In this document: one piece after another, positions 8,873-42,273 of the stretch | How positions within the stretch are numbered: position 1 is the first letter of the stretch | Layout of the letters: each line of letters starts with the position of its first letter | Assembly: GCA_051294905.1 (NCBI GenBank) | Contig: CM119371.1 | Location: 37,574,001-37,638,000, forward strand | From: Botryllus schlosseri | Lineage: Eukaryota | Length of the DNA stretch: 64,000 bases | Direction of reading: 5' to 3' | Made by a program: the position numbers and the translations under genes | Notes under the pieces: model-generated | What the model saw: the letters and a program-made list of their open reading frames with translations, nothing else | Told to the model about the DNA's origin: nothing | The model's database searches: none

Positions 8873-11800
8873 TTAAATGCAAATTTCGCACAAGTAACGG
8901 CGCTCCTCGACGTCGCAGGCTTCGAATTGCAGGCGATCCGCGTGGGCGCCATCCACGCGACCGCAAACCGGATCAGTATCGCCACTGGTGTCAGATATCA
9001 CCGGATAGAAGCCGGGGATAGTATTTGTCACGTCGATGCCATCCAATGGAGCGATGAACTCGGCGGTGCCGACGACTAGCAGGACCACAAAATATGAAAC
9101 CGTGCCGTCTACCCCTATCCAGAAAGTCAGTCCCACAGCATCGAGCGCTTTGATCAGAGCTCTGCAATATTTCATGAACATGTCTTGGAAGTCACTCCTT
9201 ACGCTGGTAGTTTAGAAATGTCTTGAAAAGCTATTTCAAAATTCTAGGTTTAGTCAGAATTCAAAAATTCCAATTTCCAATGTAAATTCCACTTTCAGTT
9301 AGGATGATATTCGCAAAGTCGATTCGACTGCTTCCTGAAGTAGATTTGACATGTGTTCGAAATCGATTTCGTAGTTTTAATTTGAATTATAGTTCTACAA
9401 TATAATATAGATATATATCTGACAAAATTATAATTTCTAAACTAAATTTCACTGATTGTAGAGTAGATGCTCACGGAGTCAGCTTTATCCTACTTTAAGT
9501 AGTATTGAGATGTGTTGGAAATGAATTTCTAAAGTTGAATCTAAATTTAAATCCAGCAAAATTAATTTCGAATCCAAATTCTACCGATAGTCAAGTAGAT
9601 GTTCACGGATCTGACTTCCTTCTGCTTCAAGTAGTTCCGAAATTTATAGGACATCGCTACTTTTTATTTGTAACTGAGTAGAAATTTACGGCGTTGTTTC
9701 TGCTTTTACTTGAAGTAGCCTCGACACGTCTACGAAATGGCTTTTAATTGTAATTGAGTAGAAAATCATGGCGTCAATTCTGCTTCTACTTGAAGTCGTT
9801 TTGACAAGTCTTGAAAGTCTTTACTTGAGGTTTTAATAGAGTAGAAATGTACAGCGTTGCTTCCAGTTTTAGTTGTATGTCAAATTTGACATACTTCGAC
9901 CATAAACGAGTAGAGTCGGGTTGGGGTTGTTCTCGTCAGTGCCAAAGACAACTTCTGGAGCAACCAGTTCCCACCACAGCTAAAAGTGTTCCGCCAGATT
10001 TACTCTTAGAAACTATACTTGATTGGGTCCATTATAGACCTCCATATTTTACTTTCACTGCAAATGGTTTGATCATGTTTTGGAAATGATTCGCCTATTT
10101 GTTATATGCGTTCAAGCAGTTCGTTGCGAATCAGTCAATGGGAAAATATGGGGAAATAAATCTCACTGTCTATCGGCCGTAGGCGCATTGAAACCGACGA
10201 CTGCGAGTCTGCCTCCCTCCGTTTCTTCACACTTGGCCTTGGCCTCGTTCCAGTTCAAAGTATCCGTGGATAAACGGTAGTAGCAATTATTATTGCCCAC
10301 TTGAGTCCAGCCAGCTAACGGGTTCTGAAGAAATCGGATCGGTGAATTGTTAACGAATAGTATAACGATAAATGTGTCATAGCAATTGATTACCGGTTTC
10401 GATTAAACAGAGTTTCAACATATCTTCATTATCCTTGTAGCAACTTCCAAATTAATGAATTGAAGTTCAAATAACTCCTGCTTTATCGAGTAGTTCTACT
10501 TTTCTTTGGAGATTACAAATAGCCGCACGACAAGTACAGAACTCAATTCTAGTGGTCCATTTTGAAAATCCGGTAGTTTTTACAACAGTCTGCGACCGAA
10601 TTTTAATTCTCAAATTGCAAGTTTTTTGAATCGCACTCCTTTTAGAGCAAATACCGTCTGTTAACAGAAGTGACTTGCTGCATTCAAGTCGTTTTTTAAA
10701 CTTCTAGCTCTTGGCCTTTACTGGATCATTGCATGTCAATTCGCAATATGCTTATTAAAATCATCTAATTTTTACTGTGTGTAATGCTATGTCTAACGCC
10801 GAAATTGCATCAGCCTGCAAGGACTTTTGACACATAGAATGGCTTATTTTTAAGAAAAGCAATATTGTCGAAATGAAATCAATTTCATTATTTTAAAATG
10901 CTTTGCCATGTGAACTACCGAGATCTGAAATTAGGTCGGGGGTGGCAGAACATCACTTTTAGGGCCGCATGTGAGCCGCGTGTTGATGACCTCTGCTATA
11001 CAAGATCTATTTTACATCAAAAATACAAGTTGTTTTCAATCATGGTAGTGAATATTGTCCATAAGCAATAGTGCCTTAAAGCCTTTAGTTCAATTCCGTA
11101 ACTCATCAACACCGATGCAATAATGTCATTTATTAACTTCTTCGGAATAAGAAAAACAGTGACGTATAAGACCGCTTGTCTTATACGTCACTGTTTTTCT
11201 TATTCGAAAGAAGTTAATAAATGTATTTGATGTAACAGAAAACTCAGGTTCCTGCGTTTCATTCGATCCTACAATTACAGAAACTGTTCCAACTAGACAT
11301 CACTTGATCGTGACTGAGACGATCAAACATTCGGTATTAGAGTTTTGTAGTGGATATCGCAGACAGGCCAGCAAGGCAAAGATGCCATACAATAATTACC
11401 AATTTAATCTTACCGGAGCTGCTGTGGTCGTTGACGCCATTGTCGTCGCAGCGGTTGTCGTTTTGGGTGTCAATGCCCCTGAAACAAATGACCGTTCCTT
11501 TATCAAAAATTGTCCTTAAACATCAGCTTGTTCAATGTTCACATTTCAAGCATATTTATTGTAATTGATGTCTCTTTATAGAATTGAATAGTATACTCAC
11601 ATTGAAATGATCCCGAATAATTTTCGGCTGACACTCGTCAGGGGTAAAGGTCAGCAAATAGTAGAGATTTGGAAAGAACTTTGTATTGTATATCAACAAT
11701 GGTGTCTTTAGTAAACTGACTTCATGCTGGTGACGTCATATTTTGAGATACGATTGTTGATATGCAATACTCTTTCAAATTCTCTACTAGTTGCTGACGA

Positions 11801-12324
11801 GTACCCCTGATGACTGTCAGCCGAAAATGTTCGCGTTTATTTCATTATGAATATAGGCTACTATTCAGTTATATATTGAAGTTCCGTACCTCAAAGAAGC
11901 TCTTCATAGAAATCAACAACTCACTCAAAAGTATGTATAAATGGAGAGGATTCCGAAGGTCGAAAAGCTTCCGTCGCCGAGGCTGAGGTGTATAATAATA
12001 TTGAGGAGGCGGGCTGTAGTCGGGACTGGTCTGGTTGCTGTTGTAGGGTATATATCCCTGGCTGGATAGGTTTTCATGCTCCGCCTGAAAAGTAAAAGAT
12101 TGTTTAAGGTACTTGCGATGATTGTGAACTATATTTGATGCAAAGAAACAAACGTGAACTAATAGCGCAGAGACTCACGTGTTGCGCTACCGGCTCTCTG
12201 CTTCCTGTTAGAATCAGAATCAGCAGATTTCAGAGTGTTTCATGAAATGGAATACAGAATATTTACCTTCAGAAGTGTAGGCGACGTGCACGTAAATTGC
12301 GAGGCAGAGAATTGCGATCTTCAT
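8873..12324 (-). CDS. Secreted C-type lectin-like protein, paralog 1 (6 coding exons, 251 aa, intact)
   Basis: Exons 12324-12267 (MKIAILCLAIYVHVAYTSE, signal peptide), 12204-12179, 12084-11925, 11478-11414 (Thr-rich), 10324-10167 (WTQVGNNNCYYRLSTDTLNWNEAKAKCEETEGGRLAVV) and 9161-8873 (FWIG...C...C..RRYLCEICI*). All introns are GT-AG with matching phases; 756 nt with no internal stop. Confidence 0.88.
9180..10100. repeat. Degenerate ~80-130 bp tandem repeat in lectin-1 intron 5
   Basis: GAGTAGAAAT...TCTGCTT(C/T)TACTTGAAGT anchors at 9461, 9594, 9676, 9756 and 9839. Confidence 0.6.
11127..11223. repeat. Near-perfect 46-bp-arm palindrome (5-nt loop)
   Basis: CATTTATTAACTTCTTCGGAATAAGAAAAACAGTGACGTATAAGAC / CGCTT / reverse complement with 2 mismatches. 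Confidence 0.9.
11583..11905. mobile_element. Inverted pair of Penelope-like pseudo-LTR ends in lectin-1 intron 3
   Basis: Two inverted copies of the 3' terminus also seen at 13510-13650 and 45970-46140. Each contains a hammerhead core. Confidence 0.75.
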
Positions 12325-12584
12325 CTCGAATTTACTAGCTATAAAATAAAGGTAGAGCTTCTTGGTGGTACAGAACTTCAATATGTAATTGAATAGTATA
12401 TTCATTTTGAAATGAACCCTAATGTTTTTGACTGACACTCGTCACTCGTCACTAGCATGTCCCAAGATTTATCAGTACACGTGCATCTCGGTCGGTGAAA
12501 AGCTCACCCTTAACTCATCCGCTCATGCTTGATGCTGAGCCATCAAAGGCCAAAAATTATGCCATCGGCAAACATCTGTTAGGT

Positions 12585-13311: not shown

Positions 13312-13586
13312 TGTTAGGTAATCCGGTTTGAGCGAATAATTATCGACGCGACAGATTTCGCGTTGTCGGGAGGGGTCGTTCACACTTCCATTAGTGTGCC
13401 TTGGAGTAGACTTTTAACAAAATACACGAGCCGAAACTCTGTCAACAAAAGGTGTTCGTGTACCACCTGAAAATAGAACATTGAACGCTCTCTTATTCGG
13501 AATTTCATACTGGAGACGTCATATTTTGTGATACCATTGTTGATACACAATGTTCTTTTTAATTATCTACTATGTTGTTGACGATT

Positions 13587-13620
13587 ACCCCTGACGAGTG
13601 TTAGCCGAAAATATTCGGGT
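13587..13620 (+). ncRNA. Minimal type I hammerhead ribozyme
   Basis: ACCC-CTGACGA-G tgttagc C-GAAA-ATAT-TC-GGGT: stem I ACCC/GGGT, conserved core, palindromic AATATT stem III, UUC cleavage triplet. Confidence 0.75.
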
Positions 13621-17127: not shown

Positions 17128-17195
17128 ATGATATTACTATATTATATAAATATATTGTATTTATATATTGAGAGCAATGAACTACGTGGTTGATA

Positions 17196-17474: not shown

Positions 17475-18243
17475 ACGTGGTTAATACAAGCTTCTGGGTG
17501 GATGTGATACTGTAAGGCAAGTAAGAATTGAGAGGTAAAGTACAAATATAATATTCATCCAACATAATTATTAAAAAAAAGTTAACAATAAAAATCGTTG
17601 CACCCTTTTATTCACACCAACCCAAGGGTCCGTCCTTCTATTAAGACACCAAAATGTATGGGATGTTACAGCTTGGTCACTATCTCGATCGGTGTGTGGC
17701 TTGGTAAACTCGTCCTGTTATTTTGATAATGTTGCCGGCAGGTTTTCCGAGTTCGTCTTCTCGCAGCCTCAGCGGAATGAATGCGTTGTTATGACATTTT
17801 CTCGACTTAAATTAACCCATGATATATCGACTTTATTATGTATGTAGATAACGTCAGGAATCGGCTACCCCTGACACGTGTGCATAAAGTGGCGCGCAAG
17901 ATGAATTTTTATAACACGCTAAATAATTTCATGTGCAATATTATAAACATTTTTTTTGGGAAAAGTGAAACAAAAGTCAGCAAATAGTAGAGATCTGGGA
18001 GTAACGTTGTATTGCATATCAACAATCGTATGTTTAGTAAACTGATTTCATGCTGGTGACGTCATATTTTAAGATATGATTATTGATATACAATGTCTGT
18101 CCAATTCTCTACTACTTGCAGGCGATTACCCCTGACCATGTCAGCTGAAAAAAGTCGGGCTCATTTCGATATGAATGTACTACTCAATTGTATATTGAAG
18201 TTCTGTACCTCCAAGAAGCTCTTCACAGAATTCAACAACTCAC

Positions 18244-18655
18244 TCAAAGGTATGTATAAATGGAGGGGATTCTGAAGGTCAGAAATCTTCCTTCGCCGAG
18301 GATGAGGCTAAAGTCGATAATAATATTGAGGAGACGGGCTGTAGTCGGGTCCGACCTGGTTGCTGTTGTAGAGTAAATATTCCTGGCTGGATTGGGTGTC
18401 ACTCACTGCCTGAAAAGTAAAACATTGTAGTCGGTTCTTGCGATGATTGCGAACTATATGTTTGATTCAGAGAGCAAATGTTAGGTAACATTGGAGCGAC
18501 TCACGTGATGCACTACCGGCTCTCTGCTTTCTGTTAAAATCAGAATCAGCAAATTTCAGAGTATGCTATTTCCTAAAACAGAATACATAATACACACCTT
18601 CAGAAGCGTAGGCGAAGTAAGCGTAAATCGCGAGGCAGATAATTGGGATCTTCAT
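18244..18655 (-). pseudogene. Lectin-family paralog 2: exons 1-3 only, premature stop
   Basis: Exons 18655-18598 (MKIPIICLAIYAYFAYASE), 18530-18505 and 18409-18244. In-frame TAG at 18310-18308. Homology to paralog 1 ends at about 17975, before exon 4. Confidence 0.82.
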
Positions 18656-22597: not shown

Positions 22598-24240
22598 AGT
22601 CTAAAATCATAACAGCATGAGTATGAAGTGTAAGTACGTACCGGTGTACTCCTAAAAAGTTGAAGTACTCCGTTTCTGCTTGACGCTAGTTATAAGTGTA
22701 CGAAATAGCGTTCACTCAAGATTCGCCGTTGATGACGCACAACGTCAGACACCAAATATAAACAAATTACTTCACTGGATAAAAATTGTAAACAAACACC
22801 AATTTAGATAATCCTTGGCCGAAATCGAGCTCAAGCGTCTCGACTAACAGCTTTATTCAGACGACTTTGATGACGTTTGCCGTGAGAGTCGATTACCTGG
22901 TGACCACGTAACCTGTTCTTTCAGATTCACCATAAAATTATACGTCAACCTTCCACATCTTTTCCAGACTTCTTATCAGCTTTGTCAATAAGATATATTT
23001 TTAAAGTCGGATATATTTTTATTACGAATAGACAATGCTTTCGAAAGATGTTTTGTCATCAAAAATATGAGTCATTAATTTCGAAAGAAATGAAAATTCA
23101 TCACAACTGATTTCAAACCACGCAATGGCGACAAAATCGGTCGTCCATGACGAAGAACGATGTTACTCATATTTGCGAATGACAGGATCCGGATTTGGAA
23201 AACTATCAAATCCGGACAGTATTTGGAAATTCTTACATATCGTTGCATGTCACTTCGTCACCCTATCCGAATCCGTCCAAAGTCATATTTTTTCCTAATC
23301 TTAACTCAGATGAGATGAGTATGGATTTGAGATTCAGATTTGTTGACCTTGGCTTGATTTGTCTCGGGCATGGATTTATGACCAATTTGAAATTAGAATT
23401 GGATTCGAATATAAAATTTATGAATCCTTACAATTTTTGATGCGACCATCGAACAAATTCCATTCAATGACGTATTCGGATTTGAATTTAGAGCTAGATC
23501 ACTACAGATTGCAAAGTGTTCTTTAGTGCTTGACATGCCAAAACAGCATCATTGGTAATTCTATAGCTGGTGAACCGGGCGTGAAACTTAATGAAAATGG
23601 TTTGAACCGAAAGCTACTTGTGCACCAATTCCGAAAATATAATTTATGATCTGGTCAAGGTACTGAAACCCACCCAAATATCTTTCTGAAAGTCCCAAAT
23701 GTACATTGATATGAACAATCGGAGTGCGATTCTGAACAGCGATGATTTCTGTCTTTGAGCGTAATGTCAGGGCAATTCCATAGCCAGGGCAATTTTAAAT
23801 TGATATTTTCAGTACCAGTAAGACATGAGCTTTGGATTAAAACTGTAGTTTTAACTTTTGCGCTCTGGTCGTCAGCTCTAAAACCATACCTTATATGTTT
23901 GGGAAGCTACCAGTGACCAGATCTAGCGAAAACAAAAACACTTTTCATTCAAAGTGACGACTGAAGTTGCGTATCTAACGTTAGAATTAAGACAAAATAT
24001 ATTCTGGATCTGAATTTGGATCGATTTTTTCGATCACGAGCCTACGAGATGTGACAGGACTTGAATCTATAATCCGTAACAAGATTTTGATTCCAAAATA
24101 GGAAGTCCGCTTAAGTCCCTGACAGGCGTGTGATCCAATAGTTGAGTATCGGTGTGATATTTCGTTATATCAGATCCGGCGCTAGGCGGCAGGTCATAAA
24201 TTCTTCGGTCACAGTTACAACGACAGTCACGTGATGCGGT

Positions 24241-27200
24241 TTAAATGCAAATTTCGCACACGTAGCGACGGGCCTCGTCGCCACAGGCCTCGAATTGAAG
24301 TGTGTCCACATCGGTGTCATCCACGCGCCCACAGACAGTCTCGCCGTCTGCGCTGTCATCAGCTAACGCCGTAGTGAAGCCGGGAGGATCAGCTGTCACT
24401 GAGGCACCGGCCAACGGAGCGATAAAATCAGCAGTGTCGACGGCTGGGCTTGTCGAACCACCAGTTACATCGGTGGATGATCCAATCCAGAAGGTCACTC
24501 CCTCAGCACCGAGCACTTCGATCAGAGCTCTGCAACATTTCATGAAGATGTCTTGGGAATTGCTCCTTCACTGGTAGTTTAGAAATATCGTCGAAGGATT
24601 TTTCTTAATTCTGATCAAATTTCTGCTTCTACTTGAACCGGTGTGGACATGTCTTAGAATGTCTTAGAATCTCTGCATGTAGTTATACTACTAGAAATTT
24701 ACGGCGCTATTCCTACTTTTAGTTGTATGTCAAATTTGACCAAATTTTGTCATAGTCGCGTCGATTCAGATTGTGAGGTTTCGGCAGAGCCAATGACAAC
24801 TTCTATACCAGCCACCGCCGACGAACCGCGAAACAACGTGTTGCCCCACGACGGATCTACTTTTAAAATCTACTTATTTGGGTCCCCTGCAGACCTCCAT
24901 TTTCTGCTCACACTTCAAGTAGCTTGATCGTGTTTTTGAAATCACTTCTTCCATTTGTTATCCGCGTTCCAGCTATGCAGGGAGAATCACTCATGGGAGA
25001 ATACAGGGAAATAAATCTCACTCTCTCTCGGCCGTGGGCGCATTAAATCCGACGACTGCAAGTCTGGCTCCTTCGGTTTCTTCGCACCTGGCCTTGGCGT
25101 CGTCCCAGTTTAGAGTATCCGTGGATAACAGGTAGTAGCAATTATTATCGCCCACTCGAGTCCAATCGGCCAACGGATTCTTAAGAGATCGGATAGGTGA
25201 GGTGTTAACGAATTTGACGAACCATTTGTACTCCGCGTTTGATTCACGTTTCGACACAATTTAAATCAGAGGTCTCAAACTCAAATTTGCTTGTGGGCCA
25301 ATTTCCTAATTTCTGATGATGACGCGGACCGCAGCATCAATAATAACGGGATTCAATGTATATTATCCAAGTAGGCTTTATTTGTCGGCAGCTTGAAGAC
25401 ATGCATTCCACAAACATCGTGGAAATGTAATTTACCATCATACTATTCACGCTTGGCACCAAAAATATCACATTTTCAAATATTTTAATTAAATAGTTTT
25501 AGTGCCGGGCATAATTTGTTAAAATAATGAGTTATAGATATCATGAGAAAGGACCCATGATGACATTGCATAACTGTCGGGTTATAATATTGCAGCTAGT
25601 GGAATTTTGACGCGCCACAATTTTGTGTAGAATATTTTAAAATCTATTAAAGATGAGCGGTGTAGCTTAATCCGTTTTTTTTTATATAGTCGTGATAATT
25701 AGGCTATGGTTGCTGGCATTGTAAAAAGTCAAATTCAACCAGCGTAAGATTTTCTTCGATAATATTGAAACAGATCAATAACAACCTAATTATAACCATT
25801 ATTGTGGCACAGTAATACCATTGTTTCTTAACGTTTTTAGCAACCGTATCCCTTGTGCTTTCAATGAGATTTACCGTGCCCCCTGTCCATTTCCAAAACA
25901 ATTTCTAATGGTACCTATATAAAAATCAGAAAGCCTATGCACATAAAATCGCACGTAGTGCGAATAATACTTTCCAGTTGAATAAATTGGCCAAGAAAAT
26001 ATTCAACCGTATATAGGTCAATTTTCACAATGCAATTCGTACCCCCTGATATTTGGTGCGTCGTGCCACAGATTGGTGCGTCCGTATGATTATTAAGTCA
26101 CTATTCCGAGACCCAAGTCCTTCTCTGATTTCAATGTTTGACCAGACTCAACTAGAGTCATTTTTAGTTTATCACCCAGTCCATCCAACATCGAGTAATT
26201 TGACGAAAGGTCGCTTCAAACAAAATCACAATGTTCAGTCACGAATCGTTAACGGGTCATGTTTTATCGTCATGAACTAGAAACGTGCCGTAATAGCGAT
26301 ATTTGTTCGTTTCAGGTATTCATGGTGTTTGTCGACTACTATGGTCATTTACATTAGCCCAATCTCTTAATTTTTATTCCGTAACTGCCGACTTGTAGCA
26401 CGGCCCACTTCTGGGCTTTTTATAAGACACTGCTTCCTGGATGATATGGCGAGGAGGCGCCTAGATAAACCTCGAACACTTAGGTAGGAATTCTGAAGTC
26501 GACCTTGGTCGAACCCGAACTCACAACCCATTGATGTTGTAGCTGTGACTTATACCACTACGATACTGGCCACCCGTAATAGCGATATTCCACCGAATGG
26601 TAGATTTTAGAAGTGATGTGATAGTGAAGTTTATTGAGATTTCAGGTTGTTGTAGTAGTTTTAGAGTGAACTGCAAGTTCTTATATCTGAAAATGATATA
26701 TGCATCTGAACATATTGTCGAATACTTGAAATTTCATAATGCCTTCGCAGACCGCGTATTTGAGACCCCTGATTTGAATGATATGACTAGCAAAAACTGC
26801 GACCTAGTTAGTTGGCTGTCACCCAACTATTGTTTTTATAGTAGTTTTGAATCTAGTTTTAAGAGCGCATATAATTAGCTGTACAGCAACTAGAAAATTC
26901 GTGTCGTCGTTTGGCATGAATCGTGATACCGGCTTTCTGTTATGTGACGTTTTGAAGGTTGGCGGTTAGTTTCAGTTCTAGTTCTAGTTGTTGTGTTTTG
27001 AAAAGTGCGTAGTTCTGTTGCAAGTTTTGAAAAGTGAGTAGTTCTAGTTCCAGTTTTGAGTTTTTGAATTATAGTACATTGTATAACTCCGTCAACAACA
27101 TCAGCTGTACACGATAGATTTCTTATTCAGCAAGTTTTGATGCGTCGAGATTAGTTTCTTACAGACATTATCCGCTACCATGTAGCGCGTTACAGCATTT

Positions 27201-30200
27201 GTTTGAATTATGCGACTCATCATCAGTATATTTATGATGAATAACGTGATGCCAAAAACCGCAGATCTTACGCGGTACTGTTTTTCATATTCTGAAAAGG
27301 CACATTTATAATTTGTAAATTCGTGATAGCACAATAACAGCTCGACGGATATCGTGATAGCGATAAAAGCAACAACAAGGATGATCTCGATATATTCATC
27401 CGAATTAAAAAGAAATGGGATCTATCTTTAGACAATATATAAGTGGTTCTAAACCATTCTGTCATTGCGGGCTCATTTTGGTCAACGACACATCGGATTC
27501 GGATCCCGATCAAATTCTGTTCAAATTTAGCTTAATTTACTCTTAGTAACTGTTGGTTTTTCTATAAGAGGTAACGGACTTGCCCATGCTATAGTCAGCG
27601 AGTCTATAGCCGAATAATAATAAATATCATATTACGACAATGGTAGGTACTGGGGCAATTGTGGTCGCCGCTGCTGTTGTGGTCGTGGTTCTTGTCATCG
27701 ACACTGAAACAAATATATCAAAAAATTGATCGGATGTAAATATCTGTGTGCGTGTGCGTGCGAGTGAATGAATGAAGGAATCATTAAAATAATTAAACTA
27801 GGGCAAGACCAATTCCTGGTATGCCGATGATATCGATTCGATATCACATTTTGTCACAAAAATCAGTATAGGTCATTTAGGGTAAGAAAATATCGCCAAA
27901 TGTTCATGATTTCAGCATGGTAATATGTGACTGCTTGACTGGAAATATTGATATATTTCATACACCTTACAGCAGTTGTTCTCAAACTGTGGTATGCGTA
28001 CCACTAGTGTAGTGGTACTCATACTTGGGGCGTGAAAGCAGCTGAAGGGGGCGCGAAGCTGGGATCAACTGAAGATTTTTGTCGCGCTCGGCGCTATTTA
28101 CCTCAATATGGTGATTATTGCTATGTTATTTATAGTCCTAATTTCATATTTGAGAAGCCTATCATCAGCAGTCACAACCTCTTATGCTATGAAAATATCC
28201 GCTAAGATTGTAAGCATTCTGGTTGCATTTTGTGATATGTCGATGTGGGGGCGCGAAATTTTTCACCATCACAAAGGGGGGCGTGTCTAAAATAGCTTGA
28301 GAACCACTGCGCTAGTGGTACTTGAGAGCTTTTTAGGTAGGCTATGTGAAGAGTGCGGTGAATAAAGTCATAGGTAGGCTTACCATATTTTGGAAATCTA
28401 ACAGGGGGTCACTTTTCCTAGGCTTGCAAAACCGGAGAAGAATTCTCAAAAACCGGTGAATTTATCCCACTTTCTGATCGGTTGACCAAAAAAAAAAAAA
28501 AAAAAAAGGTCTTCTCTCCGCTCAGAGCTCAAAAATACCGTTTTTCTCTCCGCATTGCTAGGTGGTTGACTTAAAAATAAAAAAAAAGAGGTCATCTTTC
28601 CGCTCAGAGCTCAAATCACCGTTTTTCACTCCGATATACCCGCCGGCCTTAAAAAACGGGACGTTTGGCTGACTGGTCGCGACGCCGGGACAAGATGTCA
28701 AAAAGCGGGAATGTCCCGCCTAAAGCGGGACGTATGGTAAGCCTAGTCATAGGCCTACATAATATTGGCGAGCTATGCATACGGTGGTGTTGCGTATAGT
28801 ACTAATAGGAGTAATCAATAAACATCGGTACATTCAAGTAACGTAAGTAATAAGGATGGTGTGAACGTGAGGTTCACGTTCGCGTTCTGTATGTGAACCG
28901 CATAAATTTAGAGGTTCACGCTCACAAACGAACATTGGTAGGTTCTGCACTGTGAACCTTTTTCGTAAGTTACAATTTTCACTTCATTATAACATATCTT
29001 CGGTTGAGATGTATTGTATTTGAACTGCAGGCCACTCTATGCATAGCGCCGGAAGCATAAAATGATCATAACTAAGCGAGCATGCACCTTGACAATCTCA
29101 AAAATTTTACTTGCTTTGTTACAAAAGTTTTCTCGAAATATCCAGCTTTCCGTTTGTCAATATTTAGTGACTCTCTGCTGTGAGCTTGACCCGCAATCAC
29201 ACCACATCAAGAGTGAAATACACTACATGTAGTCAGCGAATGATGCTTATTCAACCAATTACTGAAAATGCATCGTTATCTGATGTAAAAAATCTAGCAG
29301 GCGTACGGGGTCAATCTTGACTTAATATGTTTATTGTAACATAAAAACCAAATCCGTGCGATAGGGCTGTTGACTACTGCTGCATAAATTGTTAATGGGG
29401 TAATATCGGTAGCAACGTAGCAGAACTCAGACGCCGAATACTTTCTCCGGTCTGGCCTTGAATGTTAAGGCGTACCCTTACATTCCCTTGCAAGTCCTCG
29501 TCGAAATCGTTGGCAGAGCGATGGAAAAAATAGATTTTACGGGAATAATATTTCATTTGATTTTCCCAGTTGATATATTTGGCGTTCTTCAAAACGTCAA
29601 TATGCATACTTCAGCATTGGGGGATTATGTGACCCGAGTCGCTGCTAGGTATCATGTACGTATGCCTACGTACATTAATAGAGGGTATCACTTCACTGAA
29701 ATGAAGCGTTCGAATTAGCAATATTACGTCACGTGACGTCATGAGGTTCACGTTTGCGTTCACACAAAACCTTTCAAAAAGGTTCGCGTTCAAACGAACC
29801 TGAACCTTTCAGAGGTACACACCATTCCTAATAAGTAATTGAACTGGTACGCCGTGTGTTAAAAACAAATTAGTGGTACGCGATATGAAAATGTTTGAGG
29901 AGCACTGCCTGACAGGCACACGTGGTCAAATTATAATCATCATTGGTAGTCAAGCAAAAGTGAAAGTAAAAATATATTTCGAGTCCAAGCATGGCAATGG
30001 CTGCGAAACCGTTCAAATAGTTGCTCCGAGGTTTTGGAAATTCAATCAAGCTTTATGCCAGTTTTAAGTATCGTCGAAATATATCGGGGTTTTCGGTGAA
30101 GATGCCTGTTATCGGCTTTGTCGGTATCGGCAATAAAATCCAATATCGACCGGGCTCTACATTAATCGAGCCTAACTGTAAATTGCTACTCACTCATTAG

Positions 30201-32988
30201 GGCGATGAGTAAAAGGGGGTAGTCGAAGAGGCCGTCTCTTTTAGGTTTGATGGCGGGTCCGTGGTAAACAGGCTGATGTTGTACGATTGGTTCGTGATAG
30301 ATTAGCTGAGGTTGGGCCATAGGTGGATGATAGATGGGCTGGTGATATTGCGCCATGGGTGCATAATGTTTGTGTTCGTGATGTTGAAGCATGGGTACAT
30401 GTGAATGATGACCGGGATTAGGGTGGCCTTCAAGTTTAGGTCGTACCACGGGTACATGTTGATTGGATTGCTGTTGGACCGGGGGTACTTTTTGGATTGG
30501 CTGATGTTGGAGCGGGGGTACTTTTTGGATAGGCTGGTGTGGGAGCGGAGGTATTTGCTGGATGGGCTGATGTTTGACGGGGGGTACTTTTTGGATGGAC
30601 TGAGGTGGGACCGTGGGTCCATATGCGTATTCCTGATGGCCTTCATGCATTGACTGTAAATGAAAATATATTTTAAAGGCTTCGAGTCGATAGCTCGCAA
30701 GGATGTGGCCTCGATAGGAAATCCAGAAAAAATGACGGATGCAAATGCTCGCGTCCTTGTGACGAAATAGTGAAATGACTCACGTGCTGCGCAACAGGCA
30801 CACTGTAAAAAATAAAAACCTCGATTTACCGCGAAATGTTTGGAAGCACGGTAGCCAGACATTTCGTGGTAATCTAAGATTACCGTTAGTCAATGTAAAT
30901 TTAATTTACACTCGTCCGGTAATCTCACTTTACACGCCAGACTGTAATGTTACAGTCACCTCCGGTATATCTAATCTACATGTTCTCCTGTACATTTGCG
31001 ATCGAGACTGTCTTTTACCGCCTACCTACCTACATGCTGTCCCTGTAAATCAGGATTACATACCAGCTTGTAAATTCACGTACATCCATACCTATCGCAA
31101 AGCAACCCGATGCAAAAATATCGCAACATTTTCTTCACATCCCCAAAACGACATTGGAACAAACTGTATATTCATTAATGATATCACGATGAAGTGGTTA
31201 TCGATGGAAAAATATTGCTGCTGGAGGTCTAATTCTTCTTTAGGAGACATGCAGTAACACGAGTGGTCTCAAGAAAACGTGAATTAATTCCACCACCGGC
31301 CAAACTTCCAATTGTTTCTTTTTCTCGTTCTCATTCCTTCTGTTTAAGTAGTATCTTGCAGTTCCACTAAAAAGAATTCATGCGTAAGTCGCTATATAAA
31401 GCAAAGTTCCTAACCTGGACAGTGGACACGACATTATAAAGACTAAGACAAATAGGCTAACAAAAATATAACATGTTTTGAAGTACCGGTACTGGCACAT
31501 TGTGTGATGACGGCTCCGCCTTTTACATGACATAGCAGAGATTCATGACTTTATCTCTGTATTGAAGCAAAAGGTTCCTAATTTAAGGTGGCATGCGTGG
31601 CAAACAAATCCAGCAGTGGATGAAAACATATCTATGCTATGGCCCGAAAATGACATTACCAAGCCAAGAGTTTCAACTCCTCCGCAGCGGAGTATATGGT
31701 CACTATAAGTCGACAAATATCCCAAAATAGAGCAGAGAATGCGGCGAATGAAATATATCAATCATGAAATCTAAGTCATCGAGGGCTGGTGTGCAGAGTC
31801 AGATATTCACGGTAACAAATACTATGTAGTACTGTATTACCTTTTAAGATGCGTATTCCATTCAGCATTCCTAGGAATCTTCAACGATCGTGTCCACTTT
31901 CTTCAAGCACAACAAGCTTCGCTCCACCCTTTGCTCAAATCTCACTAATGGTCACTGGCCAGACGACACTCGAACGATTTCGAAATAAATGGTATTCATC
32001 CGCTGACACATGACACCAATAATATTTACTGGCCACGTTATAATGTTTGATCTGGGTCGTTTTTTCCATACAGAAACATTTATCATTGCATATAGTCCCT
32101 TTTTTCATCTAATTTCGTATAAATTGCTATATATTCCATGTGTTGTTCACTACTTACTGTACTTACCTAACCAGACGCTGCTTGTGATGTCACAGTTGTG
32201 CGTTGGTTGTTTACTACGAATCTCAGAAAAAGCAGTCACCTAATGTAACCTATTACAGGTCGACTTATCCGCCATTAACAAATGGTCAGCTGAGCATGCG
32301 GTGCCGATATTTCTAGTTTCCCCGAGCAATATTATACATCCTGAACTAATTTTCTAACTTATCAGCCTTATCCGTGACAACGAATGTAACCAGCGAGACT
32401 GGCCGTACACTGTACAGCCATTGCCTTATAATATGATATGGCTACGGTGTACCTCATTAGCTACGATTGTCAGTTATTTCTTGTACCCTACTAAGCTTAA
32501 ATTTATACTAGGGCCAACAATTTCGGTATGACAGACCCCAGTCTCGCAAACGAGGTTCAATCAGGTCAAATCACCTCTAGAATGATATATCAGTAACATT
32601 CAGTTCTACGTATACATTGACTGCAGCGATTTTGAAGCTAATCAATTTTGCCAATAGCCCGGTAAACTGCAGTAACGAGTAACTGTCAGTAATTTTGCGA
32701 AGAAATTCTGGTAACTTACTTTACAGCTATATTAAGGTAATATTACATATCAAAATGTAAAATGACAAGCTACGCACAGTAATTGGCTGCGACCGGTAAT
32801 TCGTGGTAAAATTTACAGAGATTTCCCAGTAAATCTACCAGATTTTTTACAGTGCACTCTTCTGTAGTATTCTGTTAAAAATTAGAATCAGATACGATTG
32901 TTCCGTTGAACACAAATGCAGAATATTAACCCCCTGATGCGCAGACGAAGTGAACGTAAATCACAAGGAAAAAAAATGGAATCTTCAT
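24241..32988 (-). CDS. Secreted C-type lectin-like protein, paralog 3 (about 354 aa before transposon insertion in exon 2)
   Basis: Exons 32988-32931 (MKIPFFFLVIYVHFVCASG), split exon 2 (32871-32855 plus 30798-30784), 30653-30194 (Pro/Gln/His repeats), 27703-27636 (or 27651), 25179-25022 and 24529-24241. Phases match paralog 1. Confidence 0.82.
25267..26771. mobile_element. hAT non-autonomous element containing a SINE-A fragment (about 26370-26572, minus)
   Basis: TIR CAGAGGTCTCAAA/TTTGAGACCCCTG, TSD ATTTAAAT/ATTTGAAT. Confidence 0.78.
28375..28745. mobile_element. hAT-type MITE
   Basis: TIR TAGGCTTACCATA/TATGGTAAGCCTA, perfect TSD GTCATAGG. A relative lies at about 33986-34362. Confidence 0.87.
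28851..29830. mobile_element. hAT-type MITE, inverted copy of 18942-19902
   Basis: TIR TAAGGATGGTGT/ACACCATTCCTA, TSD GTAAGTAA/ATAAGTAA, full-length similarity. Confidence 0.85.
30440..30605 (-). repeat. Coding 33-bp tandem repeat (11-aa QPIQKVPPLQH unit, about 5 copies)
   Basis: Seen directly in the 30186..30650 ORF. Confidence 0.9.
30801..32854. mobile_element. Non-autonomous CMC (EnSpm/CACTA-like) DNA transposon inserted in lectin-3 exon 2
   Basis: 13-bp TIR CACTGTAAAAAAT, 2-bp TSD CA, TTACC/GGTAA subterminal motifs. Removing the element plus one TSD restores the exon frame. Confidence 0.85.
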
Positions 32989-35900: not shown

Positions 35901-38399
35901 AGGGGAGACACGTAACACTGCCCGTAATTGTTTAAAAGAGCAGTACGTAGACGTACGTTGAGTACGTAAACGCGGAGCAGCAGCTACCGTCACCGCGCTT
36001 ACCGGCCAGATACGCCTGCGGGCATTTCATATCGTCGCCAGCCGACTGTGCTAATATTTTGAAACTCGTGCTATGTTATAATACAGGATAAATCAGTTAG
36101 CTCACCTTAAAAGCATAGAACGAATATAACTGACGGTTAGCCCGAGAAGACGAAGTAATTATAGGTGTCTAATATCCAAAATTCAATCTATTTTGTAAAT
36201 CTGTTGATGCTCCTAATTTATTTTAGTCGATATTCTGGTGTTCCTGAATCCCTCCAGAATTGAACAGTGCGACACAAGTCAAGCTTGGTGTACAGGCGTT
36301 TGCCTTTCTAATTCTTATTCTAATAAAATGAAGCTCTGATTTATATGAAAAAGATTCGATATTTTATTTCAATTCAGTCCATGATTTCTCGAATTCAATA
36401 ACTCTAATTTGAAATAAATTTGGAATATCATGGCTCGCTATAATTCTAATAACAATCTAATCTCGAGAAGCTGAACATATTCAGTTGTCTCTGTTGCCTC
36501 TGTTGCCGGCCACTTTTCAAATCACAAGGAAAGAATATTCTACGGAGTAATATGCTGCATGTGACGTTTGGAATAAATAGTCTAATCTACTATAAACCAG
36601 AGGTTGATAAAACATGTCGACAGACTTGCTCCTTGCCACTCGAGGATGTCATTAAATGCCACGACCGAATTCAAATTCACCGAATTTGACAGGCTCTTCC
36701 AATTACCGGTCCAGAGTCGCTGTATCATTTATAATATCTTGTCGTAGTTGTGCGATGATGGTTAGTACATTCGCTTGCCTCCATTGCTATGGACGCATCT
36801 GCATTGATATCTAAAGCAGTTGTTCCATTATCTACTTGCACCAAATCCGGTTCTTCAAGGTGACGGCATGTCGCCATCCACCCATCTATCTAAACCACCT
36901 ATTTTAAATGTTCGGGGCGGGATTACAAGTTTAAATCTGGCATCGAAAATGTTTACGTTCCCGTTTGAACATTTCGGCAAAACACGAACGAGAATATTAT
37001 ATAAGATTCAATTCTGAAATGTTATCTGGAATCTTCTGAAAAATGAAATCTATCATCGACTCAAATGTCACTTGATGGCTCTCAGTAAATGAGTAAATGT
37101 CAAATGGATTGATTTCGGAAAGTGGATTAAAGTAGGTCATCGTAGCTGACCTGGTCTGTATTCGGAATATCGCGCAAAGTTTGACAACTATAAAATATTC
37201 AATTTTTACAAATTAGATTTCAATTGGAAATATAGCTACACAGTTTTTGCCAAATTGAATTATAACTTCAATTACTGAATTCGCAAAAACTCGGAAATTG
37301 AATTCAATTCAGAATTACAAAGAAATACAACGAAGATCAAGCTCAGGTCATATCACATGAGATTTTTTTCTCATAAGCAAGAGAATTGCAAATGCCTGTA
37401 TATCAGGGGCGGAAAACTTCTTCAGTCGGCGATATGGCTAGGGGAAAATTACGTAATCAATAAATCAGCTCCGAAGCTCCGAGCTCCGAAGCTCGTGTGA
37501 TAAATAACATTAGCACGTTGCAAGTGGACGCTAAATAAGGTGTGATAGCAAGCAATATCTATATATTATTCGCGTAATTACAACAAAGTAATCGTATTTA
37601 ATGCAAACTTTATGCATGAAGAATTGAGTCCAAAAACAGTAGTCAATGAATTTATTAAGGTAATGTACAATAGGTGTTGAAGTCAGTTGGACATCAGTGG
37701 ACGATCAACAAGTTCTTTTAACTGTGGCCGCATGTTGGAGGTTGCAAAGACTTCACGTGAACATGAGTGACACTGCTTTATCTTGTTGATGTTCATGGTC
37801 GAGAAAGTTTGCTCGCAAATGTATGTTGACCAGACATGGGGTAATGGCGATTATTAATCGTAATCGATTACGACGATTACAGCATTTTCAAGTAATCGTA
37901 ATCACAATCGATTACATTCGAAAAAAATCCGAAGTAATCGTAATCGTAATCGACTACTTCCCATATCTAATCGATTTCTTTGTGAAAGAACGATTACGTT
38001 TTGTTTGTACAAGGACTATGACATAAACTGAATATTCGTGAACAAGAATGAAATAATATACCACGTTAGCGATAGCACAAACGTCTGATTTTCAAACACC
38101 ACTACTCATTATTACGTCGGAAGTATTAGCTCCGCTCGTCATTGCGTAAGAAGTATCCACACATAGTAAACAGACATGCGATGGATATTGTAATGTGATT
38201 GTAAGAACACCCCACGTGGTGTATATCAGGTTATCAATACACTACAGAAGCCCCTACGTCGCAGCAGGATATTGATCACCACTCTGCCTATAGTTTCAAA
38301 TAGTAACTTATGTATTGATGTTTGGTTGTGCTTAGTTAAACGCAGTTTCAACGTTGCTGCTTGGCGAGCAGTAGTCCTACGTAACATAACATAACATAA

Positions 38400-38784
38400 C
38401 ATGGTTGGGTTTTATTTTTATCTGAACAAGTCACACACAATGTACAATGCGATAAGACACAATGCGATGGCATGAACAGATATAGGAGGATGTAGAACGA
38501 CACGCATCAGTAGCGATCCTGTACTCTAACATCCACCTCGGCCTAGAGTGCCCGATGTCACAGATCTTTTTCGATGTTGATCTCTTTGAAGCCGCTGCCC
38601 TTTCTACTAGTTCTTTTCCATTCATTGTGAGTGCTTTCTTTCGTCGGGTCTTTTTCTGGGCTTTTTTGTCGCCGTAAGAACGGCAACGGCAGGGGAAGAG
38701 GAGCCCAGATAAACCTCCGGCGGGAATCGAACGCGGTTCTCCTGCGTGCTGGGCGCTTATCGTAACCACTACACTATCTCCCCT
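38400..38784 (-). mobile_element. tRNA-derived SINE, family C (3' end uncertain)
   Basis: Head GGGGAGATAGTGTAGTGG...GTTCGATTCCC followed directly by the shared core GGAGGTTTATCTGGGCTCCTC. Confidence 0.6.
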
Positions 38785-39744
38785 ACGTACGCACGTACAC
38801 CTGACAAAAATTCGGAATTTTGTACTTGTCGAATGAAACATTGCAGTTACCACAACGAAGCATTACAAATAAACAGCTGCTGATATATATCATAACCGAG
38901 CCGCGTGCTTAGCCGTTTCTCGTAACAACAGCACGCAGTATCTGTATTAAGTTTAAGGCAGAATTTTTATGTTCACTATATCATATTCTCATATAACTAC
39001 TTGAAACGGGTGCCAATCGTTATTTCACAGTTCGTTACTCAGCATTTGGACCTGCCGCCATAACCATCCGCTTTATATAGCCTGACATGTTAGCGTGGGT
39101 TGTAGCTAGAATCAGAACCAACAGCAATAATCCGTCCCCCAGTCCAACCGTTGGTCAATTTTCAAAACTGAATTTCGTCAATACTATTGGTCATTGCATT
39201 AGATTACTATTCATTTTTAACCTCTCTCAGCCCCGAGTGTCAGATTTACCTGTAGAGCTGGGGCACGTAATTCATAATTATAGCATCTGGTATGTTGTTA
39301 TAATTACTTTTTTGTATGTTGTTAATTCCTGACCGCAGTCAGTTGATTAATCAAAAGATATTGTACTCGCCCAAACGTAGCAGACTAAAAGAATATATTT
39401 CGTGAGACGCACACGCAAATTGTCATGGCTTTATTCCTATGTGGATGCACCGAGTGGCATTTGCATTGTGGGCTCAGATTGGAAGGACAGGACTATTATT
39501 AGTCACGCCCACCCAGCACGACTATTGACAATGGACGAATACCCTAAGTTTCGGCTAAGGTATTTCTTTGGTATCACATCCCGTGGAGTTGCGTGTTGGC
39601 CGAAACTGCATATGTCTTTTGGTGTGTTGTGGGATCGTGGCGCGGTAATGACCGGCACCGAAATGCCTGTTCCCATAAAATAGCCTATGCATGTTTTTCT
39701 TGAAGGGGAGAGGTATGCATTTCAAACCCAGCTATCTACTGGAG

Positions 39745-40226
39745 CAGGGGTCACCAACCGTTTTGAAAAAAAAAACTACTTCTTGTGTAGTGTGTACTGA
39801 TTATTGCGACGACCGACGGGTTACCACTTACTCCCACCGTTTATCCGTGCTCCGTTGGATTTCTTCACTTAGAGTAAGACAATCAGAGCACTGGGCCGGG
39901 TTTCCGCCCCTTACCAAGAACGAAAAACGCTCACTCGCCGGGACTCACACCAGCTCCTCTGGGCTCAGTTGCGTTGCTGCAGTGCGGGTCAAAGCGCTAA
40001 TCTCCGCGACGAGACTTGGAAATATTAACTATAGATTCCCGTTGAGCCACCGCGTTGGCGAAGACGAGCAATGCCCCGAGCGACTGCGTTCGTCTGTTCC
40101 TTGGGGTCGGCTGACCCATGTTCAACTGCTGCTCATATGAAACCAGCTTCAACTTTTAAATCTTTCATTTGAATATTTGCTACAGCGACCGCGGGCGACT
40201 CATTTGGTCCGCGTTGGTGACCCCTG
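39745..40226. mobile_element. hAT MITE with 28S rRNA-derived interior
   Basis: TIR CAGGGGTCACCAAC/GTTGGTGACCCCTG, TSD TACTGGAG/TACTAGAG. Confidence 0.87.
39828..40183 (-). rRNA. Degraded, internally deleted 28S rRNA fragment (non-functional)
   Basis: Plus strand matches the 28S antisense core as recalled: TTACTCCCaCCGTTTAtCCG..TTTCTTCACTT..CAGAGCACTGGGC, GGAAATATTAAC..GATTCCC, CTGACCCATGTTCAACTGCTG.TCA.ATG.AACC, TTTGAATATTTGCTAC. Confidence 0.82.
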
Positions 40227-41580
40227 TACTAGAGACATTTGAATCGCGAAGCTCGAAGAATATTTTCAAGAAGTAATTAAATTCTCGAAAATACTCTAAT
40301 TTATGTTGGTTTACGAAATACTTTTGAGTCCCCTTAGAGCACGCTCCCCACCCTATTAAGGAATTTGGGGTGCGGCAGGTAAAGACCTGGCAATAATGCA
40401 AATCGTTGGGTGCGATAAATCATCCCAATAAAGTTGGGCAATTGGTATATTATGACGTAATAAGCAAATGACACATGATGTATGAAGAGAGTTGATATCT
40501 CATTAAGCCTTTTCATCGCAATCCTTGTATTGTCTTCCAATATATCCTTTAAGATTATAGCACTAAGAAGCAAAACAAATGTAATCGTGAGTAATCGTGA
40601 TTACTTTTCCAATGTAATCGTAATCGTGATCGACTACTTCCTGATTTTGCTGTAATCGTAATCGTAATCGTAATCGCGTGATTCTGAAGTAATCGTAATC
40701 GCAATCGATTACATTCATGAAGTAATCACCCCATGTCTGTGTCTTACCGTCCCGAGGGTTGACTATTTAATATTCATTCACTAGAAACTTCTTGTATGTC
40801 AACTTGAATTTCGACATGTTCGGATATTTTATTCAACATAGCATCAATAAAATCAATTACACATGAAATAATTCAAGTTGTTTTCAATCACGATGATATT
40901 TTCATCGGTCCAAGACATACACACAATGCACCATGTATATTGCATTGTACATTGTATGTCTTGAGCAGATGAAAATATAATCTATCGAATATTGATGTTG
41001 ATCAAGATTCCTTTCAAACTGATACTCTCCATTAGTGGTAACAGTGACCTGAAAGGTGTTATGTTCAACCGTTATCCTTGATCCAGGCAAATGAATGTAG
41101 AAATAAATTCCGAATGTCCACGCAATCACGAATATCCAGTTGTGACGTCATAGTGGTTTGACATTGACAATTAAAAATACAGGGAAAATATAGCTCCCTT
41201 GCCGAAATATCCAAGTACTATAGCTGTTGAACTGACTATTTTGAGGGTTCCAGCGATCCCATATCTTATTCGTCGGCTTTATCGGGCGGTATTCGTCCGT
41301 AGGCTCACACAACATGGTTTTTTGAAAGTATTCACATAATTATGGGGTATTATATTACCACTTGGAAAAACACATTTTTTAAAGGCCTTTGTCTAAAACG
41401 CTGTTTAAAACATGTTTTACACAAAGTGTTTTGAAACACCGTTTGTTTTAAATTCAACCTTAATCGCAGCACTGACATCGTTTATTTCAATGTAGAAACA
41501 ATTGGAACTGGAGACAACTTCACCGTGGGGTCATCGGTGGTATTGGATCGTTAAATAAAGCCAATGGGTCAATAGAATAA

Positions 41581-42273
41581 TTACGAAGAAAATCTCATTG
41601 CAGTGGTCGATGCAGTTGTCATTGTGGTCGTTGTAGTCGTAGTCGTGGTCATGGTCGGTTTCAATAGCACTTAAAATATATATGTACAATTTTTTACTTG
41701 CCAAAGGCAATACTTTGTCTACTCACTGAGCATGGCGTAGAGAAGAAGGGGGTTGTCGATGATGTTTTTTAGCCGATGCTTGACCACGCGGCCCTGGTGG
41801 ATAAGCAGGGGTTGGAATATGGGTCCCTGGTATATTAGCTGAGAAGGGGTGATAGGTAGGCCTACCTGGTAAATGGGCTCAGGCTGGAGGACGGGCTCAT
41901 CGTACATGGGCCGAGGATGATGGTGTACGACTGGTAACTCTTGGATCTGGTTTCCAGGGAAGGGTGAATATCCCTGGTTGGAGTGAACATCAAGGAATCC
42001 CTAAAATAAACCGAAACGAATTGAAGAGTCTTGGGATCGTGAGCTACGAAGACGGTGGACTCGAATTGAAGCCCAGACGAAATGGCGGGCGCAAAACATT
42101 GTCACAAAATAGCGTTGCGACTTACGTGCTTGACAGCAGGATCTCCGTCTCTTTCTGTTGAAATCAAAATCAATTTCGCGTGTTTTATAGTAGATGCATA
42201 ACGCAGAATACGAACCTTCGGATGCGTAGACGACGTAAGCATTAATCGCGAGGCAAGGAATTGCAATGTTCAT
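41581..42273 (-). CDS. Lectin-family paralog 4: secreted Pro/His/Thr-rich protein without CTLD (149 aa, 4 exons)
   Basis: Exons 42273-42216 (MNIAIPCLAINAYVVYASE), 42154-42126, 42000-41727 (...NIIDNPLLLYAML) and 41669-41581 (poly-Thr, TAA). 450 nt in frame; AATAAA at 41486-41481. Confidence 0.75.

Follow-up and report, generated by a model that had tools for sequence, protein, structure and literature searches.

What do four similarly built genes in a stretch of the Botryllus schlosseri genome encode, and how many of them still work? The stretch analysed, called the window below, comprises 64,000 nucleotides (GenBank assembly GCA_051294905.1, contig CM119371.1, positions 37,574,001 to 37,638,000 of the forward strand). 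It contains four tandem paralogs of one family, designated P1 to P4, all on the minus strand, and the exon sizes proposed for them in an initial annotation were confirmed. Our tentative answer, with a probability of about 0.45, is that P1–P4 form a lineage-restricted tandem family, evolving by birth and death, whose secreted products would belong to an extracellular matrix or surface coat. Each product is predicted to be a secreted protein with a variable Pro/Gln/His-rich front and a Thr stalk, joined in two of the four copies to a divergent C-type lectin-like domain (CTLD).

The description of four co-oriented paralogs sharing a 58-nt signal-peptide exon was borne out. ATG exons of this length begin at 12324, 18655, 32988 and 42273, and GT directly follows all four. 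A loose template (a 58-nt hydrophobic ATG exon plus a short intron) recovered four minus-strand sites, those of P1–P4, and none on the plus strand. The same template found a mean of 0.45 sites and a maximum of two in 100 shuffles, a test that is favourable because the template was composed after the exons were known. For exon 1, dN/dS was 0.19 both for P1/P3 and for P1/P4, from small counts. Rfam and ARAGORN gave no matches in the window.

P1 has an open frame of 251 aa spread over six phase-compatible exons with GT-AG introns. Exon 1 (12267..12324, 58 nt) carries a signal peptide predicted from hydropathy and is followed by a 26-nt micro-exon with a His codon at its end (12179..12204). Exon 3 (11925..12084, 160 nt) is rich in Pro, Tyr, Gln and Ser and closes with a basic cluster and a hydrophobic D-x-x-N-P-L motif. 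Exon 4 (11414..11478, 65 nt) encodes the Thr-rich stalk, and exons 5 (10167..10324, 158 nt) and 6 (8873..9161, 289 nt, to the stop) encode the two parts of the putative lectin-like domain. Offset 5-nt indels in exon 6 create a hydrophobic loop, after which the frame is restored; the strongest hydrophobic 19-mer of P1 (mean 1.99) sits in this loop, which could be damage. P1 and P3 are separated by a dS of about 0.6–0.7, with all six P1 exons still in frame.

P2 consists of exon 1 (18598..18655, 58 nt), a micro-exon with a terminal His codon (18505..18530, 26 nt) and an exon 3 (18244..18409, 166 nt) that contains an in-frame TAG. Neither a Thr exon nor a lectin exon of its own was found in the window, and its 82% similarity to P1 terminates within a repeat in intron 3. 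By its predicted exon content, P2 copies only the 5′ part of P1 and carries a stop.

P3 has the six-exon layout of P1, with a transposon in its micro-exon. Exon 1 (32931..32988, 58 nt) precedes the 5′ half of the micro-exon (32855..32871, 17 nt), the inserted DNA element (30801..32854, 2,054 bp, strand unassigned) and the 3′ half with its terminal His codon (30784..30800, 17 nt). Because two nucleotides are duplicated, the 17 + 17 nt correspond to an empty-site length of 32 nt. Exon 3 (30194..30653, 460 nt) is Pro/Gln/His-rich and includes a 33-nt tandem repeat at 30472–30618. Exon 4 (27651..27703, 53 nt) is Thr-rich, and exons 5 (25022..25179, 158 nt) and 6 (24241..24529, 289 nt, to the stop) encode the two lectin-like parts. 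The 3′ flank of the lectin exons (22897..24240) aligns with the P1 3′ flank at 7513–8872 at about 70%. Joining of the Thr exon to the lectin exons depends on a weak exon-4 donor (CCA|GTACCT) and an AAG acceptor at exon 5, and the Thr exon is able to read through to a stop.

The inserted element has 13-bp perfect terminal inverted repeats beginning CACTG and a 2-bp target duplication. CACTA/EnSpm-like (CMC) elements begin and end in CACT(A/G), have short inverted repeats at their termini and duplicate 2–3 bp of target, and the P3 insert shares these features. The element is high-copy, with high depth in sequencing runs X1 and X5. It is probably non-autonomous: Pfam gave no match on two of its open frames, and the longest frame across its intron is 62 aa. 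The insertion is polymorphic, as judged from the sequence together with an empty site in contig 19 of X5, a run from the same species; since the transposon is missing there, a P3 allele without the insertion exists. On the insertion haplotype, none of the five simple splice-rescue options tried brings exon 3 into frame, and translation running on into the element meets a stop after 38 residues. The segregating transposon provides a natural loss-of-function allele. To count four working members was an overstatement: two of the four are broken in this sequence, P2 by its TAG and P3 by its transposon, and the initial annotation had missed both lesions.

P4 comprises exon 1 (42216..42273, 58 nt), a micro-exon ending in a His codon (42126..42154, 29 nt), an exon 3 (41727..42000, 274 nt) that is rich in Pro, Gln, His, Ile and Val and homologous to the 3′ half of the same exon in P3, and an exon 4 in which a Thr run continues to the stop (41581..41669), with AATAAA 95 nt downstream. 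Its frame is open for 149 aa without lectin exons. These predicted exons mark P4 as a copy of the P3 type with the Thr exon as its last.

Taken together, the exon models trace P1 and P3 to a putative ancestral gene of six exons (signal, micro-exon, low-complexity, Thr and two lectin-domain exons). A micro-exon of 26–32 nt ending in His had been assigned to all four copies; it stands for P1 (26 nt), P2 (26 nt) and P4 (29 nt), and P3 lacks a contiguous 32-nt version. The phase 0/1 exon of 160, 166, 460 and 274 nt in P1–P4 and the Thr-rich exon kept in P1, P3 and P4 were found as proposed, and the 158- and 289-nt exons lie only downstream of P1 and P3, tblastn of the window finding two copies of each exon in all.

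Exon 3 is the variable part of the family. Its Pro+Gln+His content is 46% in P3, 31% in P4 and only 26% in P1; His makes up 12% in P3, 7% in P4 and 4% in P1, where Tyr reaches 13%. The N-terminal halves of P1 and P3 had been called barely alignable. For exon 3 as a whole this holds (311 of 2000 shuffles reached the alignment score), but it fails for the last 20 residues, where only 4 of 2000 did so. P3 and P4 exon 3 align over 79 residues at 33% identity, a score reached by none of 2000 shuffles. Two sources of variation had been proposed, expansion and swapping. Expansion is seen in P3, where the 33-nt unit is present in 4.5 copies, and the predicted exons indicate that length was altered by internal repeat gain. 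Swapping was not supported: all four exon 3s have common phases and one donor, their 3′ ends turn from basic to hydrophobic in the same way, and their grouping, (P1,P2)(P3,P4), is identical in intron 2.

In all four copies the basic cluster precedes the conserved hydrophobic motif at the same position. Measured against the convertase consensus R-X-K/R-R, none of the four clusters is a clean site. On hydropathy, the closing part of exon 3 was rejected as a membrane anchor, and neither P4 nor the P3 model has a hydrophobic segment of membrane strength (best 19-residue means of 1.22 and 1.66, the P3 value being that of the signal). The predicted pI is 4.05–4.28 for the lectin-like domain versus 6.6–9.2 for exon 3.

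That exons 5 and 6 encode an atypical C-type lectin-like domain is supported by results that are weak but concordant. With an exon-5 profile, 31 of 34 matches to PDB sequences at E≤10 were named C-type lectin-domain proteins (best E 0.013), among them LOX-1, CD69, the DC-SIGN family and snaclec; exon-6 profiles gave only chance matches in PDB sequence searches. In the Atlas, exon 6 reached Lectin_C clusters at 0.93 and 0.92, with the family on 31% and 63% of their members. Pfam assigned no family, PF00059 included, to any of seven exon peptides run singly, each domain half among them. A half-domain model (pLDDT 64.6) had LOX-1 as its top Foldseek match at E 0.88, with none at E≤0.001 and tunicate TC14 (PDB 1byf) at rank 46 (E 4.9); VIA-align of this model found nothing at Z≥5, and no lectin was among the matches listed. 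Co-folding of the exon 5 and exon 6 peptides gave weak support, 0.53 against 0.02 for the best control, in a range (≤0.60) that holds only 5 of 78 solved complexes yet all four of the mismatches that passed among 180. Split-domain halves pass through likeness to solved folds. The runs agreed in at least 76% of contacts and partner pLDDT was at least 66; of the 78 solved complexes 51 pass the mark itself, as against 2 of 108 mismatches.

Between P1 and P3, dN/dS values of 0.14 for exon 5 and 0.43–0.55 for exon 6 show purifying selection on the predicted domain, with exon 6, usually the ligand-loop part, evolving faster than exon 5. The P1 domain contains C135, C222, C238, C247 and FWIG, and P3 is alike. 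The cysteines correspond to the four core CTLD positions, and their pairing would follow the usual CTLD pattern. In the W-x-x-A-x-x-x-C helix 1, WIG and the four core cysteines, P1 and P3 resemble non-calcium CTLDs; EPN, QPD and WND occur in neither model, and the strand ahead of the third core cysteine reads Q-F-E-A. An extra C-terminal cysteine (C-E-x-C in six of seven rows), a single N-terminal cysteine and one intron within the domain complete the picture. Since Pfam misses the domain halves and the cysteine pattern is distinct, the subfamily is worth modelling.

The expectation of an undescribed family was upheld, in that sequence searches returned no named full-length relative of these predicted secreted proteins. 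Of seven database matches to exon 6, five were kept, all nameless single-exon relatives that retain its motifs at 28–49% identity; the candidates P0003 and P0004 were dropped as repeat-driven. As weak evidence, a full-length relative was found among longer proteins neither with an exon-6 profile (none among 4131 candidates at E≤1) nor with the exon-5 profile (0 of 70 at E≤10), and a widened exon-6 profile recovered only its own five database members from 3657 candidates. An Atlas search with P4 exon 3 gave nothing usable, and one metagenome locus (L001; 71 stretches) was dismissed as chance, its 23-residue match running into a stop and its surroundings containing none of the other exons. No description of the P1–P4 family was found in mainly open-access main texts, and supplements could list the genes under plain gene ids.

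Expression was assessed over the P3 and P4 stretch. A search of sequencing runs for the window listed no RNA run among the carriers, and its small shares of 0.15–0.27 were not counted as evidence. In RNA run X23 (about 6% read; tissue unspecified), depth was 0 over 23900–25141 and 30110–30730, which include the P3 lectin exons and exon 3, and at most 0.05 over 41909–42500 in P4. A presumed-RNA run, X15, had depth 0 in the same bins, its reads falling on repeats. P3 exon 1, at 32973, carried 20 RNA reads with 12 starts. As for the spliced transcripts implied by the initial annotation, the one confirmed RNA run mapped to P3 and P4 showed no family junction among the listed 15 of its 987 joints.

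These depths bear on whether the cluster is largely dead, that is, once functional and now without expression, P1 and P4 being merely not yet hit by a stop. The P2 stop, the P3 transposon, the weak P3 exon-4 donor, the AAG acceptors and the offset indels of P1 exon 6 would fit such decay, as would the near-zero depth on P3 and P4 exons. We consider it improbable: X5 holds a transposon-free P3 allele, P1 keeps its six exons in frame at its distance from P3 with frame-restoring indels, the reads on P3 exon 1 come from distinct starts, and the five relatives keep the exon-6 motifs. Missing reads in a bulk run also fit narrow expression, as of a protein confined to one stage in gametes, egg coat or larva, or of a precursor whose N-terminal part is freed by cleavage at the basic cluster and acts as a peptide. 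The constant place of that cluster before the conserved hydrophobic motif and the kept P4 frame lean the same way, but the would-be peptides vary threefold in length (53–153 aa of exon 3) and those of P1 and P3 share little sequence, unlike conserved signalling peptides. This reading strikes us as no less doubtful than a dead cluster.

A secreted immune effector or recogniser is unlikely, though less so than either of these. Its CTLD would bind microbes or non-self, and its variable His/Pro-rich exon would be antimicrobial or diversifying, as in the sea-urchin SpTransformer proteins. Clustering, small size, rapid change and repeats within a His-rich exon all recall SpTrf as excerpted in PMC5491942; excerpts further describe a colonial ascidian immune-related cell cluster enriched in C-type lectin genes (PMC12212465) and CiCD94-1, a CTLD without sugar binding that acts in ascidian immunity (PMC5465252). 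The faster divergence of exon 6 points the same way. Against this, the sugar-binding motifs EPN, QPD and WND are missing from the P1 and P3 models, the RNA run left P3 exon 3 and the lectin exons without reads, the window has only four copies and no element mosaic, and His enrichment is confined to P3 and P4.

Under the preferred reading, a secreted matrix or surface-coat family, the disordered, neutral-to-basic Pro/Gln/His(Tyr) region would self-associate after secretion and might be cross-linked, the Thr run would be O-glycosylated and act as a spacer, and the acidic lectin-like domain, without calcium or sugar motifs, would dock onto a partner, either a protein or matrix. Convertase cleavage at the conserved basic cluster closing exon 3 may part the two halves. 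That P4 retains its frame without the lectin domain is consistent with a role borne by the low-complexity part. Quite unlikely as a whole is an undescribed structural family of the chordate lineage whose precursor joins a cationic His/Pro/Gln-rich cassette of free length to an acidic, sugar-blind CTLD with an unusual terminal disulfide. Once separated by a cut at the basic site, the two would assemble through charge pairing and cross-linking to form tunic, cuticle or larval glue, which would make the family a convergent, reversed counterpart of sea-urchin SM50-type proteins. The proteins that make up tunic, cuticle or adhesive are poorly known in B. schlosseri. Annotation and homology searches miss low-complexity micro-exon matrix genes, so a defined family supplies candidates for these materials.

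Several known systems invite comparison. Group XII EMBP is a single soluble CTLD with an acidic neck (PMC514892, in excerpt), whereas the P1/P3 neck is low-complexity and not acidic; unlike usual CTLDs, the P1/P3 halves have no PF00059 match, an intron in the domain and an extra C-terminal cysteine. SpTransformer (Sp185/333) genes are likewise small and clustered, with a disordered His-rich region and repeats within the main variable exon, but as excerpted in PMC5491942 they are two-exon genes whose products have a Gly-rich region and RGD and lack a lectin domain; the present family has four to six exons, its translations examined contain neither Gly-rich region nor RGD, and no SpTrf homology was seen. 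TC14 lectins (PDB 1byf) and CiCD94-1 (PMC5465252, in excerpt) are also ascidian C-type lectin domains; CD94-like proteins belong to the type II membrane proteins, and in the texts consulted neither TC14 nor CiCD94-1 is reported with an N-terminal half of the P1–P4 type. Ascidian adhesive proteins, in the excerpt of PMC12817120, carry vWA, EGF-like or VWC-like domains, unlike the P1–P4 design. The sequence searches returned no SM protein. A secreted CTLD with variable repeats is a well-known general design: echinoderm skeletal matrix proteins such as SM50 of sea urchins and OwSM21 and OwSM24 of a brittle star, according to excerpts of PMC4336488, share with P1–P4 a conserved acidic CTLD, a Pro/Gln-rich region of variable repeat number and gene duplication, and the P1 and P3 domains are comparably acidic (pI 4.28 and 4.05). 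The opposite order noted in the initial annotation was confirmed from the same excerpts, which place the repeat region of SM50, SM21 and SM24 carboxyl to the CTLD; in P1 and P3 the repeats precede the domain, with a Thr stalk between.

The window, of 40.9% G+C and eukaryotic character with many dispersed repeats, carries on its minus strand four tandem paralogs (P1 to P4) of a candidate secreted-protein gene family. Each opens with an ATG exon of 58 nt followed by GT, starting at positions 12324 (P1), 18655 (P2), 32988 (P3) and 42273 (P4). Pairwise identity among these exons was 69–86% (shuffle maxima, 62–64%). When scanned with a loose exon-1 template, composed after the exons were known, the whole window gave these four sites alone (n = 4), and 100 shuffled sequences gave a mean of 0.45 sites and a maximum of 2. 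Sequence and template scan bear out the four co-oriented genes with 58-nt first exons proposed by the initial annotation, whose exon sizes were all correct. Under predicted splicing, the six exons of P1 join in compatible phases into an open frame of 251 aa, and four exons of P4 encode 149 aa, with a stop inside the Thr-rich exon and AATAAA 95 nt beyond it. A pyrimidine-rich tract ending in AG lies 7–14 nt 5' of each ATG and could mark a splice acceptor, used either by a 5' UTR exon or in trans-splicing. Non-coding 3' flanks of ∼1.4 kb at P1 (7513–8872) and P3 (22897–24240) are ∼70% identical, and could be a long 3' UTR or merely co-duplicated flank.

Exon 3 of P2 contains an in-frame TAG, and in the window P2 has neither a Thr-rich nor a lectin exon of its own. 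Its similarity to P1 (82%) stops within a repeat in intron 3, so P2 is a 5' partial duplicate of P1. A MITE-like repeat of ∼370 bp occurs around both genes (45970–46340, 13314–13648, 12354–12444, 11577–11905 and 17972–18224) and may have mediated the duplication, since the similarity ends inside one copy. A 960-bp repeat is present as two inverted copies of 76% identity, upstream of P2 (18940–19902) and in P3 intron 3 (28851–29832).

In P3, a 2,054-bp element (30801–32854), with perfect 13-bp inverted ends and a 2-bp duplication, splits the micro-exon. One contig from X5, a DNA or DNA-like run of the same species, joins 30797 directly to 32854 and lacks 2,056 bp, corresponding to the element plus one duplication copy; the insertion is therefore polymorphic in the species. 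The micro-exon of the empty allele is 32 nt, and none of five simple splicing options rescued the frame in this haplotype. Element depth in X1, a second such run, was 37,000–86,000 (summed contig depths, not to be read as copy number) versus ∼20 in single-copy bins, so the element belongs to a high-copy family. A copy somewhere is transcribed and spliced: the joint 31366→31841 (474-nt GT-AG intron, minus strand) was found in 226 reads of the RNA run X23 and in one contig of X15, a run guessed to be RNA, with no long open frame across it. The P3 Thr-rich exon has a weak donor, so that read-through to a stop is possible, and the following acceptor is AAG; its likely joining to the lectin exons is thus proposed by analogy with P1.

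Diversification of exon 3 by swapping or expansion had been proposed. Over its whole length, exon 3 of P1 and P3 gave no alignment (score reached by 311 of 2000 shuffles), as expected from N-halves described as barely alignable, but the last 20 residues do align (4 of 2000). P3 and P4 share in exon 3 an aligned stretch of 79 residues, 33% identical, whose score none of 2000 shuffles reached (BLASTP E = 5e-7). In all four copies the exon ends with a basic cluster, D-x(0-2)-N/Y-P-L, a short hydrophobic run and an identical phase-1 donor. Intron 2 identity (P1/P2, 78%; P3/P4, 61%; remaining pairs, 49–52%) groups the copies as exon 3 does, (P1,P2)(P3,P4). The common end and donor and the concordant grouping argue against swapping. 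Expansion was upheld by a 33-nt unit, present in 4.5 copies within the extra length of P3, and exon 3 changed by divergence and internal expansion.

Exons 5 and 6, present in P1 and P3, very likely encode a C-type lectin-like domain, given the following fold and profile results together with a WIG motif and four core cysteines. A search for PF00059, with the domain halves submitted separately, matched neither half, and Pfam returned no family for seven exon peptides; in Atlas, exon 6 fell in Lectin_C clusters at 0.93 and 0.92. [quoted passage not shown] Modelled alone, exon 6 gave a poor model (pLDDT 64.6), for which Foldseek ranked LOX-1 first, yet at E = 0.88. Co-folding the two peptides as separate chains gave weak support (0.53 versus 0.02 for the best control; contact agreement at least 76%, partner pLDDT at least 66). 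Only 5 of 78 solved complexes passed at 0.60 or below, a range that held every one of the 4 mismatches (of 180) that passed; split domains pass through likeness to solved folds. The domain is atypical, as had been claimed: EPN, QPD and WND are all missing from it, which makes calcium-dependent sugar binding unlikely. A single N-terminal cysteine lacks its usual partner, and an additional cysteine near the end, kept in six of seven aligned sequences, may form a disulfide with it. Between P1 and P3, dN/dS (simple NG86) was 0.14 for exon 5 (14 synonymous and 9 non-synonymous differences) and 0.43–0.55 for exon 6, where 5-nt indels, offset and counted relative to P3, produced a hydrophobic loop in P1.

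A search of 1.84 billion representatives returned seven matches at E ≤ 0.001, of which two were dropped as repeat-driven. The other five are genuine exon-6 relatives (28–49% identity), all unnamed singletons on Logan contigs of 1.0–2.3 kb that look like single genomic exons by length. Profile searches of longer proteins found no full-length relative, a blank that is weak evidence, and the literature searched, main texts only, held no published description; nothing in the available portions of work on tunic proteomics lectins (PMC7401272) and Toxocara (PMC3611597) matched this design. The searches made thus agree with the view of the family as undescribed, and P1 to P4 form a real, apparently unnamed tandem family.

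RNA reads from X23 (∼6% read; tissue unspecified) were mapped to 23900–42500, covering P3 and P4 only. The lectin exons and exon 3 of P3 had a depth of 0, and exons 1–3 of P4 did not exceed 0.05. None of the predicted family junctions was among the 15 joints listed of 987. At position 32973 in P3 exon 1, 20 reads with 12 starts, unaccompanied by reads on P3 exon 3, all carried a variant missing from X1 and X5; they may derive from another allele or an unseen (fifth) paralog elsewhere. A repeat at ∼38412–38784 reached an X23 depth above 4000 per strand. ARAGORN and Rfam reported nothing on it; it is probably a SINE, with what we take to be a tRNA-like look. On the plus strand, an open frame at 2–874, matching PF00665 (integrase core domain; E = 1.1e-9), reads as a retrotransposon fragment, and exons of an amino-acid transporter gene span ∼51800–60740 (PF01490 pieces, E = 1.5e-5 to 0.009).

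The predicted protein would consist of a signal peptide, a disordered Pro/Gln/His- or Tyr-rich region (computed pI 6.6–9.2), a Thr spacer and an acidic lectin-like domain (pI 4.05–4.28), an anatomy that fits a secreted structural protein. Tentatively, at a probability of roughly 0.45, we favor secreted matrix or coat proteins. An immune role is doubtful; a gamete, larval or peptide-precursor role is less probable still, and so, to the same degree, is a dead cluster. The cluster is real but less clean than first described, with a stop in P2 and an interruption of P3 in this haplotype, both previously unreported, and diversification by expansion. For matrix or coat proteins, the available part of one account describes tunic cross-linking by oxidised DOPA-type peptides (PMC5465252), which would make the Tyr/His-rich region a plausible cross-linking substrate. 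Echinoderm skeletal matrix proteins, as far as the available part of PMC4336488 describes them, likewise pair an acidic C-type lectin-like domain with a Pro/Gln-rich region, there variable repeats at the carboxyl end. The domain order of P1 to P4 differs, so they are not members of that group and would, at most, work like them.
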